Part shown: one piece after another, positions 4,339 to 63,819 of the stretch
Layout of the letters: each line of letters opens with the position of its first letter
How positions within the stretch are numbered: position 1 is the stretch's first letter
Source of the DNA: a virus
IMG/VR virus record: IMGVR_UViG_3300025141_008753
Span: 3,677 to 67,676 of that record
Strand: one strand, 5' to 3'
DNA: 64,000 bases
Notes under the pieces: generated by a model
Seen by the model: only the letters and a program-made list of their open reading frames with translations
Told to the model about the DNA's origin: nothing
Databases searched by the model: none
Program-made: the position numbers and the translations under genes

Positions 4339-4583
4339 TGACTCTAGAAGAGAAATACATATTACTTCGGCTCCTCGTGGAATGGGACCCATCTGTAGTC
4401 TCGGAAAACACTGGGAAGTTCAGGATGTCTAAATTGGATGCGCATCTAGACCGCTTAGACTTACCTACTGCAAAATCCATAGTGACAAGTCTCAAAGACC
4501 ACTTGGCTTCGTACGTTGACGATAATGATTTTTGCAACAATATCCAATGGTGTTTCCCAAGAATAAAGCATGTCTCCCAATAA
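4338..4583 (+). CDS. Small hypothetical protein between the polymerase halves
   Basis: 81 aa; TAATG stop/start overlap with the upstream ORF. Confidence 0.55.
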   Translation: MTLEEKYILLRLLVEWDPSVVSENTGKFRMSKLDAHLDRLDLPTAKSIVTSLKDHLASYVDDNDFCNNIQWCFPRIKHVSQ

Positions 4584-4621
4584 AGCGGAGAAATTTTAAC
4601 GCCACTTACTATTATTATATC

Positions 4622-5617
4622 ATGGATAAAATCAAAGCAGAATACATTTGGTTGGACGGCACAGAACACATGCCCCGCCTTAGAAGTAAAACCCGAATCA
4701 TCGAGGCTTCGGGCGAAGTCCCTGAATGGGGGTTTGATGGCGGGAGTACTTACCAAGCTGATAACGAGAACTCAGACCTAACTCTCAAGCCTGTAAGGGT
4801 TTACAAAGACCCGTTTCGCGAAGAAGACGACGTCCTCGTTCTGTGTGAAGTGTATGTCCCAGAAACAGGGCTTCCTCATGACAGTAATACGAGGGATGGT
4901 CTTTTAGATATGCCTGTAACAGATGCTCCACTATTCGGCTTTGAACAGGAGTACACTTTATTTAACGGTAAAATGCCTATCGCATGGATGTACAACGAGA
5001 TGCCAGAGCCACAGGGAGATTACTACTGCGGTATCGGTAATCGGATTGTGTACGCAAGAAATATGGCAGAAGACCATTTAGTTAAATGTCTGAAGGCTGG
5101 AGTGGATATCTACGGGATGAATGCTGAAGTTATGCCTTCCCAGTGGGAGTTTCAAACCACCGCCAACGACCCCCTCAAAGCTGCTGACGACCTGTGGATG
5201 GCTAGGTATATCCTAGAACGTGTAGGGGAAGCTTTCGGCTGTACTATTTCGTATGCGCCAAAGCCTCTTGCTGGAGAATGGAATGGTGCTGGATGCCATA
5301 CCAATTTCTCAACCAAACCCATGCGAGAGGGCTGGGACGCCATTCAGACAGCTATTAAGCGCCTTAAGAAGCGTCATGAGGTTCATATGCTATGTTACGG
5401 GGCTGACAACGAAGAACGCATGACAGGCGATTGTGAGACGTCTGACATCACTAAGTTCACGGTGGGAGAAAAAGACCGCTCTTGCAGCATTAGAATCCCC
5501 GCTGGTGTGTCCCGAGACAGGAAAGGATATATCGAGGACCGTAGACCAGCCGCTAATATTGACCCCTATCTCGTTTGCACTAGGATACTTAAGTCGGTAT
5601 GCTTAGACCAGGACTAA
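4622..5617 (+). CDS. glnII: Glutamine synthetase type II
   Basis: AEYIWLDG, LRSKTR, WGFDGGST, FGFEQEY, NAEVMPSQWEFQ, WNGAGCHTNFS, YIEDRRPAANIDPY; ATG 4622 lies 6 nt after TATTAT. Confidence 0.93.
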   Translation: MDKIKAEYIWLDGTEHMPRLRSKTRIIEASGEVPEWGFDGGSTYQADNENSDLTLKPVRVYKDPFREEDDVLVLCEVYVPETGLPHDSNTRDGLLDMPVTDAPLFGFEQEYTLFNGKMPIAWMYNEMPEPQGDYYCGIGNRIVYARNMAEDHLVKCLKAGVDIYGMNAEVMPSQWEFQTTANDPLKAADDLWMARYILERVGEAFGCTISYAPKPLAGEWNGAGCHTNFSTKPMREGWDAIQTAIKRLKKRHEVHMLCYGADNEERMTGDCETSDITKFTVGEKDRSCSIRIPAGVSRDRKGYIEDRRPAANIDPYLVCTRILKSVCLDQD

Positions 5618-9906: not shown

Positions 9907-10191
9907 ATGGCATTAATCCCAAATGGAAATAGAGTAATCGTGCAGAGAAAAACTGCAGAAAGCGAGACCGCTGGTGGTATTATTATCCCCGGAGCGGAGG
10001 AGAAGAAGTTGAACGAAGGAGTAATTGTTGCCGTGGGTCCGGACTGTAAGGACTACATGGTAAACGGTGAATATGTAATTTTTGACGCCTTTGCAGGCAA
10101 AGAAGTCCATCACGAAGGTGAAGACTACGCAGTGTTGGAGGAAGATGATATTGTTGTTTTCGTGAGAGGAGCGGAAGGAGCTGAGGTATAA
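9907..10191 (+). CDS. groES: Co-chaperonin GroES
   Basis: PNGNRVIV...TAGGIIIP...GVIVAVGP. Confidence 0.9.
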   Translation: MALIPNGNRVIVQRKTAESETAGGIIIPGAEEKKLNEGVIVAVGPDCKDYMVNGEYVIFDAFAGKEVHHEGEDYAVLEEDDIVVFVRGAEGAEV

Positions 10192-32481: not shown

Positions 32482-32792
32482 TGGCAAGAAATTATATCCC
32501 TAAGCGCTCATATTTTTCTGAAACGCGTGTTCAGAAGATAGCGAAGGAGGTTATGAAAGATTGCCAGCAGGACAGGCAAAAAGCGTTAGAGATGTTTCAG
32601 TATTTCTTGAAAATGGTCGAAAATAATCCAGAGGATGACAAGGCGAAAGCTGAAATGTCTAAAGCCTTGGATTTAGCTCAAAGCTCAAATGATAAGGTAG
32701 TTAAAGTACTGGACATGATGCTGAAGATGACCCAACATGAAATGAAAGATAAAAAACCAGACGAATTCTCGTTTGAACAACTCCAAAAATGA
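32481..32792 (+). CDS. Helical hypothetical protein
   Basis: 103 aa, translationally coupled on both sides. Confidence 0.7.
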   Translation: MARNYIPKRSYFSETRVQKIAKEVMKDCQQDRQKALEMFQYFLKMVENNPEDDKAKAEMSKALDLAQSSNDKVVKVLDMMLKMTQHEMKDKKPDEFSFEQLQK

Positions 32793-34006
32793 ACGACCCA
32801 TACATACTTTATAGCCCCGTTATCGACAACTTCATTAAGATTAAAAAGTTGTCTGAAAAGGAATGCCTAGTTATTGTAGAGGAGCTTAGAGGAAAAGTTA
32901 AAAGCCCTAAGTTCAAAATAACTAATTACGTTAACTACATGATTAGTTTGCTGGTTGATAAGCATGAGACTTTAATTAAGGGAAACGGGGAAGGAACTCA
33001 CGAAGCATTGTTTGAATGTGTATGTGAAGTTTATCCTGGATTTTCTATAGAGCTTTTAAACAAAACTCTTAATGATGGATTTGAGGACGAATCTGAGGTT
33101 GGCGTATCCGTTTCAGGTCTAACTCTTCCGCAGGTGGAGAAGATTGAAAGGAAAATTAAAAGTTTTTTAGTCGGTCAGGATTCTGCGGTATCAGAGGTTG
33201 TGAAGTGCATTAAATTAATGTCCTCAGGATTGGAAGGCTCCACTTCAATGTTTTTCATCGGACCTACAGGAGTAGGAAAGACGGAATTAGGCAAGTTACT
33301 AGCCAAGTGTTACTTAGGCACGGATAAGAGGTTACTGAAGGTAAACTGTGCCGAGTACTCAGGCTCACACGAGTACGCTAAGCTCATCGGAAGCCCTCCA
33401 GGGTATATCGGTCATAATGAAAAGGGAATCCTTACTGAGTGCGCTAAGAAGTCGTCTCAATGGATTCTACTGTTTGATGAGATAGAGAAGGCATCTGACA
33501 AATTACATAATCTCTTACTAGGCTTATTAGACGAGGGCAAAATTACCGATTCACATGGCACGGTTCTGGATTTCACCAATACTATTATCTTATTCACCAG
33601 TAACGTAGGTGTTAAAGATGTCGTAAATAGAAAACAAATGGGATTTGGCGCTGAGAAGATGTCATATGCAGATTCCCGGGCTGAGGTGGAAGAAGCGTTC
33701 AAGGATACATTTTCTCCGGAATTTATTAATAGACTAGACTCTATTGTGTACTTCAACACCCTAAATAAAGATGACGCTAAGCATATTGCTCGTCTTAATC
33801 TGAAACATCTCCCTATACGAGTTACGAAGAAGCTCGTGGATTGGGTTGTCGAAGAATCCTTTTCGGAGGACTTTGGGGCGAGGAACATCAAGCGTTTTAT
33901 TAAAAATAATATAACCTTACAGGTAGCTGATAAGATACTAGAGGGCAATGCAAACACAGTATTTTCTCCGGTATTTTCTAAAAATAAATTTCAAGGATTA
34001 AAATGA
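32789..34006 (+). CDS. ClpA/ClpB-like AAA+ ATPase (second ATPase domain only)
   Basis: VGQD, GPTGVGKTELGK, LIGSPPGYIGH, FDEIEKA, FSPEFINRLD, FGARNI. Confidence 0.9.
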   Translation: MNDPYILYSPVIDNFIKIKKLSEKECLVIVEELRGKVKSPKFKITNYVNYMISLLVDKHETLIKGNGEGTHEALFECVCEVYPGFSIELLNKTLNDGFEDESEVGVSVSGLTLPQVEKIERKIKSFLVGQDSAVSEVVKCIKLMSSGLEGSTSMFFIGPTGVGKTELGKLLAKCYLGTDKRLLKVNCAEYSGSHEYAKLIGSPPGYIGHNEKGILTECAKKSSQWILLFDEIEKASDKLHNLLLGLLDEGKITDSHGTVLDFTNTIILFTSNVGVKDVVNRKQMGFGAEKMSYADSRAEVEEAFKDTFSPEFINRLDSIVYFNTLNKDDAKHIARLNLKHLPIRVTKKLVDWVVEESFSEDFGARNIKRFIKNNITLQVADKILEGNANTVFSPVFSKNKFQGLK

Positions 34007-42486: not shown

Positions 42487-42563
42487 GGGGATGTAGCTCA
42501 GTCGGTTAGAGCGCCGGTCTTATATGCCGTAGGTCCCAGGTTCAAGTCCTGGCATCCCTACCA
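42487..42563 (+). tRNA. tRNA-Ile, anticodon UAU
   Basis: Cloverleaf: GGGGATG/CATCCCT acceptor, GCTC/GAGC D-stem, loop CT-TAT-AT, CCAGG-TTCAAGT-CCTGG T-arm, encoded ACCA. Confidence 0.9.
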
Positions 42564-53857: not shown

Positions 53858-54202
53858 CTAGTCAGCGTTAGCGATTTCTTGAGCAATGTTCTCACTCAAG
53901 GTTTGACGCTCATCTTTCAGATTTCGGAGTTGCTTATTTGCTTCCGAGATTTTAGATTTAGCGATTTCTCCACGCTCAATCCAAGTAGCAACACGATTCT
54001 CAAAATCTTCTACTTTCTGCTCCCATTCCGTATTCCAACGGTTGAACTTGAGCATTGAGTTATTGATTTCACGAATACGCTTGCCGATAGCAAGGATACG
54101 AGGGTCAGCATTAACCGCATCGGCGTTTGCCTTTGCTTGAAGCATTGAAAGTTGCTTCATGGTTTCTGCGATTCTTTGTTCTACGGGACGATGTTTTGCC
54201 AT
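53858..54202 (-). CDS. Coiled-coil hypothetical protein
   Basis: 114 aa, AAGGAG SD, promoter TTGACT-17-TATACT at 54253-54281. Confidence 0.8.
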   Translation of the reverse strand: MAKHRPVEQRIAETMKQLSMLQAKANADAVNADPRILAIGKRIREINNSMLKFNRWNTEWEQKVEDFENRVATWIERGEIAKSKISEANKQLRNLKDERQTLSENIAQEIANAD

Positions 54203-54470
54203 TTTAGTTTCTCCTTTGGGTTATGGGTAATGGTCTTGATTATTGAATACATAGTATACCATAGTTGTTGCTAAAAGTCAAGGATAAAATGGACAAAATG
54301 TTGGAATATTTCAAAAAAAAACTTTACCGGGCTGGCAGCCTGGTGCCTGGGCTGGGACATATAGTATAACATATCCGGTGCTAAAAGTCAAGAACAACCT
54401 TAACCCCTTACCCAGCCTATACTTACACTCGCGTGGGACCGCCCCTCAAGGGCTGCTATAAGTCAAAGGG

Positions 54471-54548
54471 TGGTGGAGGTGGTGGGAATCGAACCCACGT
54501 CCTGACAAGAGCCATGATAGGTTTACCAGTCGAACACCAATCACCCCC
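54471..54548 (-). ncRNA. Mini-tmRNA: tRNA-like domain only, no tag reading frame
   Basis: GGGGGTGATTGGTGTTCGAC 5' end, GGACGTGGGTTCGATTCCCACCACCTCCACCA 3' end, G3-U70 pair, P2 stem CTGGTAA/TTGTCAG closed by a 14-nt loop. Confidence 0.8.
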
Positions 54549-54554
54549 AAAAAT

Positions 54555-54703
54555 GAGCCAAAGAGGATTTCTTTCCATGCTCGCTCGCACCACCCTTCCT
54601 TTTCAAGGCGTGGATGGGCGCTCTGGCATTCCAACCTTCATGGAACTTGCTCTGGAATTCTCCAACCTAGGATGTCCAATGGGTGAGGTTGCCTCTTTGA
54701 CTC
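54555..54703 (-). ncRNA. Unidentified ~150-nt structured RNA upstream of the mini-tmRNA
   Basis: 12-bp terminal stem GAGTCAAAGAGG/CCTCTTTGGCTC, internal stems, begins 7 nt after a consensus -10. Confidence 0.65.
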
Positions 54704-54710
54704 GTTTACC

Positions 54711-54739
54711 ATTATACACGAGCGCACCCGTATTGTCAA
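54711..54739 (-). promoter_or_regulatory. Consensus sigma70 promoter for the ncRNA unit
   Basis: TTGACA-17-TATAAT; further consensus copies at 54819-54847 and 54937-54965. Confidence 0.88.
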
Positions 54740-54972
54740 GTAAAAAATGGGGTTTTTTCATGAAATCTCAACAAATTATGCGAGAACCCCAAAACTCGAA
54801 TTTTAACTCATGCAATATATTATACTACATTTTACCTCCGTTGTCAAGAGAAAAATAGTCTTTCTTTTTTTCAGAGTGTCATTATCGACTCTCAGAGGTG
54901 AAAAACTGCCGGAAAAATCTCCCCTGTTGTGCGTATATTATACCATTTTCCTAGCATATTGTCAAGGGGAAA

Positions 54973-55475
54973 ACGTGTAAAATTCTCCGCTTTTTTACTT
55001 GACAAAATGAGCCTAAACGTGTAAAATTCTCCGCTCAATCATGTAAAACTTTCCGCTCAATCATGTAAAATTCTCCGCTCCCAATCATGTAAAACTTTCC
55101 GCTCAATCATGTAAAATTCTCCGCTCAATCATGTAAAACTTTCCGCTCAATCATGTAAAATTCTCCGCTCCCAATCATGTAAAACTTTCCGCTCGAACGT
55201 GTAAAATTCTCCGCTCGAACGTGTAAAATTCTCCGCTCTAAGTCCTTATTATACCATTTTCCTAGCATATTGTCAAGGGGAAAACGTGTAAAACTTTCCG
55301 CTCTAAGTCCTTATTATATCATTTTCCTAGCATATTGTCAAGGGGAAAACGTGTAAAACTTTCCGCTCGAACGTGTAAAATTCTCCGCTCGAACGTGTAA
55401 AATTTTCCGCTTTTTTTACTTGACAAAATGAGCCTAAACGTGTAAAATTCTCCGCTCGAACGTGTAAAATTCTCC
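54973..55475. repeat. Tandem array, ~17 copies of TGTAAAA(TTCT/CTTT)CCGCT, mostly 22-bp period
   Basis: Direct reading; interrupted by duplicated promoter modules at 55248-55276 and 55313-55341. Confidence 0.93.
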
Positions 55476-63390: not shown

Positions 63391-63819
63391 TTATCCGAAT
63401 AATATGACGGACTTTGAATCCTTCGTCTTAGGGAAAGAAACGGTTAGAAGACCGTTCTTCAAGTCGACCTTAGCCTTCTTAACATCAAACTGTGCGTCGA
63501 CGTTGATAGTGAAATCAACATCACGGTCACTAATGCCATGGTGTAGAACACAAGGGCTTTTCATAGGTTCCTTCTTACTTGCGCGTACAGTGAAGGAGTT
63601 TTTACCCCCTACTACTTTAACGTCTTCGTCTGAGAATCCCGCGAGCGCAAACTCAAAAAAGAGTTGGTCTTGGTCATCTGACACGTAACAGTTGCTTACC
63701 GGGTATTTTGGTAGCTTGCACGTTTCGTTTGGTCGTGCATCCTTTCTTTGGCTTTCAGGGAAGCCTAGGCTTGCGAACTCTCGGAAGAGCTCATCAAAGT
63801 GTGTGAAATAATAATTCAT
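63391..63819 (-). CDS. Hsp20 small heat-shock protein
   Basis: YPVSN, EFALAGF, HHGIS.R, LKNGLLTV; AAGGAG SD. Confidence 0.9.
   Translation of the reverse strand: MNYYFTHFDELFREFASLGFPESQRKDARPNETCKLPKYPVSNCYVSDDQDQLFFEFALAGFSDEDVKVVGGKNSFTVRASKKEPMKSPCVLHHGISDRDVDFTINVDAQFDVKKAKVDLKNGLLTVSFPKTKDSKSVILFG

Follow-up and report, generated by a model that had tools for sequence, protein, structure and literature searches.

The small-RNA island and its surroundings

The window, which is the whole 64,000-nt stretch of DNA analysed here, comes from a 67.7-kb IMG/VR phage record (IMGVR_UViG_3300025141_008753) with an estimated completeness of 62%. The DNA polymerase of this phage is less than 30% identical to that of every cultured phage in the collection compared. 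At 54555-54703 on the minus strand lies a small-RNA element, read from the sequence, whose window copy measures 149 nt in a family that ranges from 93 to 149 nt. It is followed by a gene for a tmRNA cut to its tRNA-like domain (mini-tmRNA). The parts of the locus are, 5′ to 3′ along the minus strand:

54711..54739, minus strand: sigma-70-type promoter TTGACA-17-TATAAT, predicted to drive the element
54692..54703, minus strand: 5′ strand of P1, the terminal clamp, 12 nt
54684..54691, minus strand: 5′ strand of P2, 8 nt, stacking straight onto P1; pairs with 54632-54640, one A being bulged
54679..54683, minus strand: 5-nt bulge CCCAU, the same in 8/8 variants and unpaired in the consensus fold
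54641..54678, minus strand: apical arm P2b/P2c/P3, in which P2c is weak in the window type
54675-54678 with 54641-54644, minus strand: helix P2b, both sides changed in 3/4 pairs
54653-54664, minus strand: hairpin P3 (UGGA/UCCA), both sides changed in 2/4 pairs
54632..54640, minus strand: 3′ strand of P2 including the invariant UGAA, from the 8-variant alignment and pair count
54567..54631, minus strand: variable junction region, a 65-nt insert in the window type; extra hairpin arm P4, a single-sequence prediction only
54555..54566, minus strand: 3′ strand of P1, preceded by the invariant AUCCUC entry, from the 8-variant alignment and pair count
54549..54554, minus strand: AUUUUU tract from P1 to the tmRNA, proposed terminator-like tail and/or 5′ processing leader of the tmRNA
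54471..54548, minus strand: mini-tmRNA, tRNA-like domain only, 78 nt (RF00023, 67.6 bits, E 3.4e-24)

An earlier note on this DNA had placed the element 7 nt after a TTGACA-17-TATAAT promoter, closed it with a 12-bp stem and ended it 6 nt before G1 of the mini-tmRNA, and all three points were borne out. The promoter at 54739-54711 (-) matches the consensus at 12/12 positions, with the first base of the element (54703) 7 nt beyond it; positions 54703-54692 pair with 54566-54555; and AUUUUU (54554-54549) separates this stem from G1 at 54548.

The surrounding region is rich in promoters. Six perfect sigma-70-type promoters occur at 53.6-55.4 kb, all on the minus strand, and the promoter scan counted 26 promoter-like sites at 52-58 kb where 14.6 ± 3.8 were expected. 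At the head of the island (55015-55411), a 22-bp unit is repeated in tandem about 20 times, and three copies of a perfect TTGACA-17-TATAAT promoter, at 55341, 55276 and 54965 on the minus strand, interleave with this array. The array looks like a protein-binding or iteron-like sequence. A second mini unit of about 70 nt is found at 54742-54812 (-) behind a promoter at 54847-54819. Its ends pair (GGGGUU...AACCCC) and AUUUUUU follows, which is the same clamped-ends and U-tract design as that of the element, and it is conserved nearly base for base in contig L002. Words resembling TTTGACTTTTT recur in early regions (L193 1400-2850; window 54250-54460), often without a matching -10 box, and may represent a binding site or decayed promoters.

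Downstream of the element, at a distance of 0.05-0.5 kb in 7/8 variants, lies a gene for a coiled-coil protein of 110-127 aa with the N-terminus M-(A/G)-(K/Q)-H-R (‘MAKHR’) and a conserved K..RW motif. Members of this family are encoded at:

window 53861-54202 (-)
L156 1402-1731
L057 801-1130
L052 5451-5798
L193 1774-2130
L050 10475-10855

The protein belongs to no Pfam or PHROG family, Pfam giving weak coiled-coil matches only, and its AlphaFold model consists of two long helices (pLDDT 92.6). Since these phages share other early-region genes, the common order of element and coiled-coil gene may be inherited, and no interaction between the two is claimed.

Elsewhere, the window encodes ClpX/ClpB-like AAA+ (32789-34006), GroES (9907-10191), Hsp20 (63391-63819) and glutamine-synthetase-like (4532-5617) proteins, a proteostasis gene set that is possibly relevant to the tag-less tmRNA. 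A tRNA-Ile (UAU) gene is located at 42487-42563, and contig L068 carries tRNA-Ile (UAU) and tRNA-Leu (UAA) genes at 1397-1669, about 1 kb downstream of its mini-tmRNA.

The mini-tmRNA itself spans positions 1-374 of the RF00023 model, 14 nt taking the place of the middle 310 positions, and is not called by ARAGORN. It retains G3-U70, the discriminator A, an encoded CCA and both acceptor strands. A general pattern for such genes matches 46 IMG/VR contigs from many lineages; judged by these matches, tag-less tmRNAs seem to be widespread in phages. A further RNA of about 110 nt is found upstream of the mini-tmRNA in seven contigs (L050, L053, L055, L049, L056, L058 and L064), with its own consensus promoter, a T-arm-like hairpin and 6-8 U directly before G1 of the tmRNA. 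It is not called by ARAGORN in L053 and has no Rfam match at E ≤ 5 in L053 or L058.

Homologues and support for a common fold

The homologues of the element come from two kinds of search. A lineage-specific mini-tmRNA pattern led to 20 metagenome loci, and element-based patterns added three further viral contigs (L083, L156 and L182). Scanning for a 15-base core returned 88 viral stretches; the 87 loci besides L002 were searched with a covariance model of the element (R1), and only L083 was genuine, nothing besides the real element reaching E ≤ 1. Two further motif scans gained L156 and L182 along with false matches (L180, L181, L183-L186). Merging identical copies left eight distinct variants, all from marine phage contigs, which differ in how the element is placed relative to the tmRNA:

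v1 (window, L060, L067): element immediately 5′ of the tmRNA, from which AUUUUU separates it
v2 (L002, L048, L054, L062): element upstream of the tmRNA, about 110 nt of extra hairpins between them, no intervening promoter seen by eye
v3 (L057): tmRNA 12 kb away on the other strand
v4 (L052, L059, L068): element before the tmRNA, a second consensus promoter just ahead of the tmRNA
v5 (L050, L053, L055): tmRNA first, then the element behind a promoter of its own; a different tRNA-like RNA precedes the tmRNA
v6 (L083): 63.6-kb record with no tmRNA by model or pattern, a search that found the window copy as its control
v7 (L156): 5.1-kb fragment with no tmRNA detected
v8 (L182): diverged tmRNA-like gene 1.2 kb downstream, beyond two protein genes

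Taken alone, the window copy folds only somewhat better than chance. The 149-mer reaches -53.2 kcal/mol (z = -2.61), and 2/200 shuffles fold equally well; over the 8 variants the z-scores are likewise modest (-1.15 to -2.80). The single-sequence fold is thus only moderately unusual and suggestive at most, and the case for the element rests on its homologues.

The 8-variant alignment supports five helices comprising 30 pairs and 234 cells, of which 95.3% are paired. Both sides have changed in 14/30 pairs and 22 cells. Shuffling the alignment reached the observed value in 0/500 cases on any of the five measures, however this control is inflated by shared ancestry, as the 8 sequences come from one related marine-phage set. 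The safer measures are the pair-type counts and a control in which the 3′ partners were slid by 1-3 columns, which lowered pairing to 40.4-50.2% with at most 3 compensatory pairs. The pair count for seven sequences agrees with that for eight, and RNAalifold, supplied with no structure, recovers the same helices (29 pairs, 14 compensatory).

The evidence is spread over the individual helices. In P1, both sides have changed in 5/12 pairs and 94.8% of cells are paired across the 8 variants; this clamp of 11-12 bp is present in 8/8 single-sequence minimum free energy folds. P2 is paired in 100% of cells, with both sides changed in 3/8 pairs, and occurs in four versions: CAACCU/AGGUUG, CAUCGU/ACGAUG, CAACGU/ACGUUG and CUACGU/ACGUAG. 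The short P2c contributes 1/2 pairs with both sides changed, from CAU/AUG to CUU/AAG in v8. The strand is also indicated, with 17 G-U cells compatible with a minus-strand RNA alone and the R1 model scoring 111.2 bits at the element on the minus strand versus 14.1 bits on the plus strand. In 5/5 records R1 detects a single copy, and its best score elsewhere in the window is 17.2 bits. Thus, the collection of homologues and the covariation analysis that the earlier note had called for gave compensatory changes in five helices with negative slid controls, and on this comparative evidence the element is a structured RNA family, so far confined to one uncultured marine phage set.

The conserved core consists, in order, of the clamp P1, P2, the 5-nt bulge, P2b/P2c and the hairpin P3, where P2 has 8 bp with one bulged A and P2b has 3-4 bp. 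Invariant in 8/8 variants are G-G-C at the P1/P2 joint, UCACCCAU, the facing UGAA, and AUCCUC. The 3′ segment leading from P2 to P1 varies from a short A-rich linker (v2, v3 and v8) to the 65 nt of the window, and this insert (54631-54567) is restricted to the window type (window, L060 and L067). As judged from the alignment, the conserved core is smaller than the earlier note had drawn it. That note's CAACCU/AGGUUG pairing is P2, for which the eight distinct variants provide compensatory changes. By contrast, its UUCCAUG/CAUGGAA and CCAUCC/GGGUGG pairings use the 65-nt insert and are not part of what is conserved; the duplicated AGGUUGG..CCAGAGC submotif and the AUUCCA/UGGAAU pseudoknot likewise belong to the window type only, their sequences not being kept in the other variants. 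In the window P1 encloses the CCCAUCC/GGGUGG hairpin, which in L002 and L057 is found downstream of P1, and the modules therefore appear to be shuffled.

Two structural readings of the loops were discarded. A kissing dimer through the palindrome CCUAGG (UCUAGA in v5) is made less plausible by the CCUGGG of v8, and the sequences, judged by eye, do not fit a K-turn, loop-E or GNRA-receptor.

Coding potential and known RNA families

Two open reading frames overlap the window copy, one of 141 aa on the plus strand and one of 52 aa on the minus strand. Together with the modest single-sequence z-score, they could be taken to mean that the element is non-functional, a chance fold or a by-product of an overlapping protein-coding gene. 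The overlapping frames are, however, broken or missing in L002, L083 and L050, and the 8 variants have no conserved frame, start, stop or C-terminus, so that a protein-coding reading is rejected. With the compensatory changes in five helices and the negative slid controls added, a non-functional origin is largely refuted and must be considered extremely improbable. The claim of the earlier note that no frame ends in an SsrA-like Ala-Ala-stop extends to 8/8 variants.

The element family is absent from Rfam 15. Across the whole window, only tRNA and tmRNA exceed the gathering score, and nothing overlaps the element at E ≤ 10 within 54300-55000. Searches of the L083, L156, L068 and L053 elements gave no match at E ≤ 5. 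All-family E-values are diluted by 4227 models, hence single families were also searched individually, at E ≤ 10 in five records. The 6S RNA model (RF00013) matched in 0/5 records, and the consensus fold lacks a central bubble. A resemblance to 5S rRNA (RF00001), short and limited to v4 and v6, was dismissed after matches in 0/5 records, the control being above the cut-off in 13/14 genomes. The glutamine riboswitch model (RF01739, 53 positions) also matched in 0/5 records; its control matched in 13/14 genomes, above the cut-off in 1. The earlier impression of a structured non-coding RNA from no described family is thus upheld by the negative Rfam cmscan.

Searches beyond Rfam were equally empty. 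A scan of prokaryote genome contigs returned 21 stretches that are unrelated by eye, with a best R1 score of 14.5 bits (E 0.94), and 54400-54800 had no blastn match among 50,697 phage records. Among 22 sequencing runs listed, no RNA run was found to contain the sequence. Contigs from 4 DNA runs contained only the window type, the L002 type and one single-base variant, and gave neither RNA ends nor new covariation. A full-text literature search returned no description of the element RNA and no phage tmRNA consisting of the tRNA-like domain only. A tmRNA without a messenger part has reportedly been described in a jakobid mitochondrial study.

Because the mini-tmRNA lacks a messenger part of its own, the adjoining element could be compared with the coding piece of a two-piece tmRNA (RF00023, RF04321). 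No tag frame is kept in the 8 variants and neither model matches the element; the RF04321 permuted-tmRNA matches fall on the tRNA-like domain (22.9 bits, below the cut-off) and downstream of it. The neighbouring tRNA-like domain also has both acceptor strands of its own, and this candidate was set aside.

Linkage to the mini-tmRNA and proposed role

The promoter scan found no sigma-70-like site between 54711 and 54548 on the minus strand of the window. In the window, the tmRNA is therefore expected to be transcribed through the element. The simplest reading of this arrangement is that the element and the mini-tmRNA are likely co-transcribed there and that 5′ processing of the tmRNA releases the element, as the earlier note had suggested. 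This part of the suggestion stands for the window; as a general rule it does not, given the arrangements in v3-v6.

One alternative goes further and makes the element a dedicated cis leader of the mini-tmRNA, which would guide 5′ processing, attenuate the tmRNA level or act as its partner in trans. In the window, the element is the sole promoter-proximal sequence before the tmRNA and ends 6 nt before G1; the v2 element likewise precedes the tmRNA with no intervening promoter by eye; and a mini-tmRNA or tmRNA-like gene lies on the same contig in 6/8 variants. This linkage is biased, however, as v1-v5 were found via the tmRNA in the first place. The unbiased set is v6-v8, which are incomplete contigs, and there only 1/3 has a tmRNA-like gene: that of v8 (L193 2605-2680, plus strand; also labelled G003), which has a recognisable T-arm and a ACCUCCACCA end and scores 25.4 bits against the RF00023 cut-off of 47. 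Placement also argues against a leader, since v4 has a separate tmRNA promoter, the v5 element lies downstream of the tmRNA and that of v3 is on the opposite strand at a distance of 12 kb. Furthermore, the constant co-occurrence anticipated in the earlier note is contradicted within the available contig sequence: the element is absent at 45/46 viral loci that match the general mini-tmRNA pattern (L002 being the only exception), and among the lineage-specific metagenome loci it is present in 11/20 and absent in 9/20. There is also no match to a tmRNA coding piece anywhere in the element. A leader function therefore appears unlikely, though it retains some credibility, and the best reading of these placements is that the element is an independent module or cassette rather than a dedicated tmRNA leader or appendage.

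A U-tract follows a stable stem directly 5′ of the mini-tmRNA G1 in four unrelated contexts (window, L002, L050 and L051). This recurrence, which could also be counted in favour of a leader, hints at a common signal for processing or attenuation. The invariant bulge region is complementary to the 5′ end of the tmRNA over six bases, which was disregarded as too short to be meaningful.

The preferred interpretation, which has a little over an even chance of being right, is that the element is an autonomous small structured RNA of the early phage region, in which the clamp acts as a leaky terminator and the RNA binds a protein or another macromolecule. We infer its transcription, termination, processing and binding role from the arrangement of its parts. 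The cassette would comprise a consensus sigma-70 early promoter, an RNA of 93-149 nt and a U-tract. The first and last 12 or so nucleotides would pair as P1, which would stack on P2; P2 would bear the invariant 5-nt bulge and the apical arm, and a variable insert or hairpin would sit 3′ of the P1/P2 joint. Clamp and U-tract would form a leaky, long-range intrinsic terminator that also shields both RNA ends.

Three regularities point to such a promoter-to-U-tract cassette for a stable RNA: a promoter close to the consensus, located 7-15 nt ahead of the element in 7/8 variants, at least 4 consecutive U at or right after the end of P1 in 7/8, and P1 in 8/8 folds. The exceptions count against it, namely v6, which has no recognisable promoter, and v2, whose U-tract is poor (UUCUA). 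In contrast to a canonical intrinsic terminator, the P1 stem encloses 70-125 nt, and a terminator scan limited to loops of 3-8 nt does not call it. In the window and v2, where the tmRNA lacks its own promoter, P1 and the U-tract presumably cannot terminate efficiently for that reason. Read-through transcripts in the window may double as tmRNA precursors, with the cassette serving as the tmRNA leader, and a cut by RNase P at G1 would free the element with a short U tail.

The working surface of the autonomous RNA would be the invariant unpaired UCACCCAU, the facing UGAA and AUCCUC. These bases are proposed to bind a protein or another macromolecule in the manner of a decoy or scaffold, rather than to pair with mRNA. 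Matches to antisense targets in the phage are at chance level, and complements of the two invariant loop stretches within the window are either the element itself or at chance level. Macromolecule binding is thus favoured over an antisense or riboswitch role by the combination of covarying helices around an invariant bulge and junction, a stable clamp and the lack of phage targets. A more specific version makes the element the RNA part of an early-takeover module of the phage, acting jointly with the tag-less tmRNA. It might, for instance, decoy a host factor of trans-translation or RNA quality control, such as SmpB, a ribonuclease or a defence nuclease, and the tag-less tmRNA would meanwhile occupy stalled ribosomes and leave their products untagged; this version is improbable as it stands.

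A possible analogy is with stable RNAs that sequester proteins and whose 5′ and 3′ ends pair, such as 6S RNA and the Y RNAs. The element resembles them in its end-to-end terminal helix, its invariant internal-loop nucleotides, its covarying helices and the high expression expected of it, whereas it has neither a 6S-type central bubble nor a match to the 6S model. Among the 70 window proteins scanned, none was seen to be of the Ro or RtcB type. Phage T4 provides another comparison: its ‘species 1’ and ‘species 2’ are stable small RNAs in a phage tRNA gene cluster. By analogy, the element would also be a small stable phage RNA, located by a tRNA-like gene, probably co-transcribed with it and subject to tRNA-type processing. 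It differs from the T4 RNAs in having its own promoter, a clamp with a U-tract and a position that moves independently of the tRNA-like gene.

Two cis-acting explanations compete with an autonomous RNA. Under the first, the element is a riboswitch-like aptamer with P1 as terminator stem, in which P1 would be stabilised by a ligand bound at the junction, halting transcription ahead of the next gene (in the window, the tmRNA). Covarying helices around invariant junction and bulge nucleotides would suit an aptamer, as would the promoter straight upstream and the U-tract straight after P1, and the phage carries a glutamine-synthetase-like gene. There is also a precedent in Melnitz-like marine phages, where a glutamine riboswitch (RF01739) is reported beside two-piece tmRNA genes (PMC9004378). 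The two situations share a small structured RNA next to a phage tmRNA, an early promoter and a marine phage, however the tmRNA there is in two pieces and here is a one-piece, tag-less tRNA-like domain. The element differs from RF01739 in being one long irregular hairpin with a terminal clamp; it has no RF01739 match at E ≤ 10 in the 5 records and no other Rfam riboswitch match. In addition, a P1 of 11-12 bp, formed in 8/8 minimum free energy folds, is expected to form without a ligand, which indicates a stable-RNA rather than a switch design. In v5, v7 and v8 the element is followed by a new promoter or an unrelated unit with no obvious regulated gene, and in v6 it follows a gene. Overall, a riboswitch is quite improbable.

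Under the second, the element is a promoter-proximal cis RNA that would modify RNA polymerase for read-through of U-tract sites in the early region. Phage HK022 put is an antiterminator RNA of this kind, promoter-proximal, structured and located in the early region. In 7/8 variants a strong promoter lies no more than about 15 nt from the start of the element, the region is crowded with U-tract stops and more promoters, and polymerase in the window must cross P1 and the U-tract to make the tmRNA. Unlike put, the element also occurs without a promoter, in v6, where it follows a coding gene, and it is usually followed by further promoters, most downstream genes having their own. The nearest terminator would moreover be the terminal stem of the element itself. 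A put-like role is accordingly highly doubtful.

Far less of the small-RNA repertoire of phages has been mapped than of their proteins. The element described here combines compensatory support from eight variants with what looks like a very strong early promoter and a compact form whose two ends are clamped together, and it sits in a small-RNA gene island that includes a tmRNA cut to its tRNA-like domain. Were it to bind a host factor, this would indicate an RNA-based route of takeover or counter-defence. A role in tuning or partnering the tag-less tmRNA would help account for the stripped-down rescue RNAs seen in many phages. Should the combined reading of a decoy and a tag-less tmRNA hold, the element would represent a novel class of regulatory RNA in phages, one directed at ribosome rescue. 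In any of these cases, it could readily be proposed as a new RNA family and lends itself to simple experiments at the bench.
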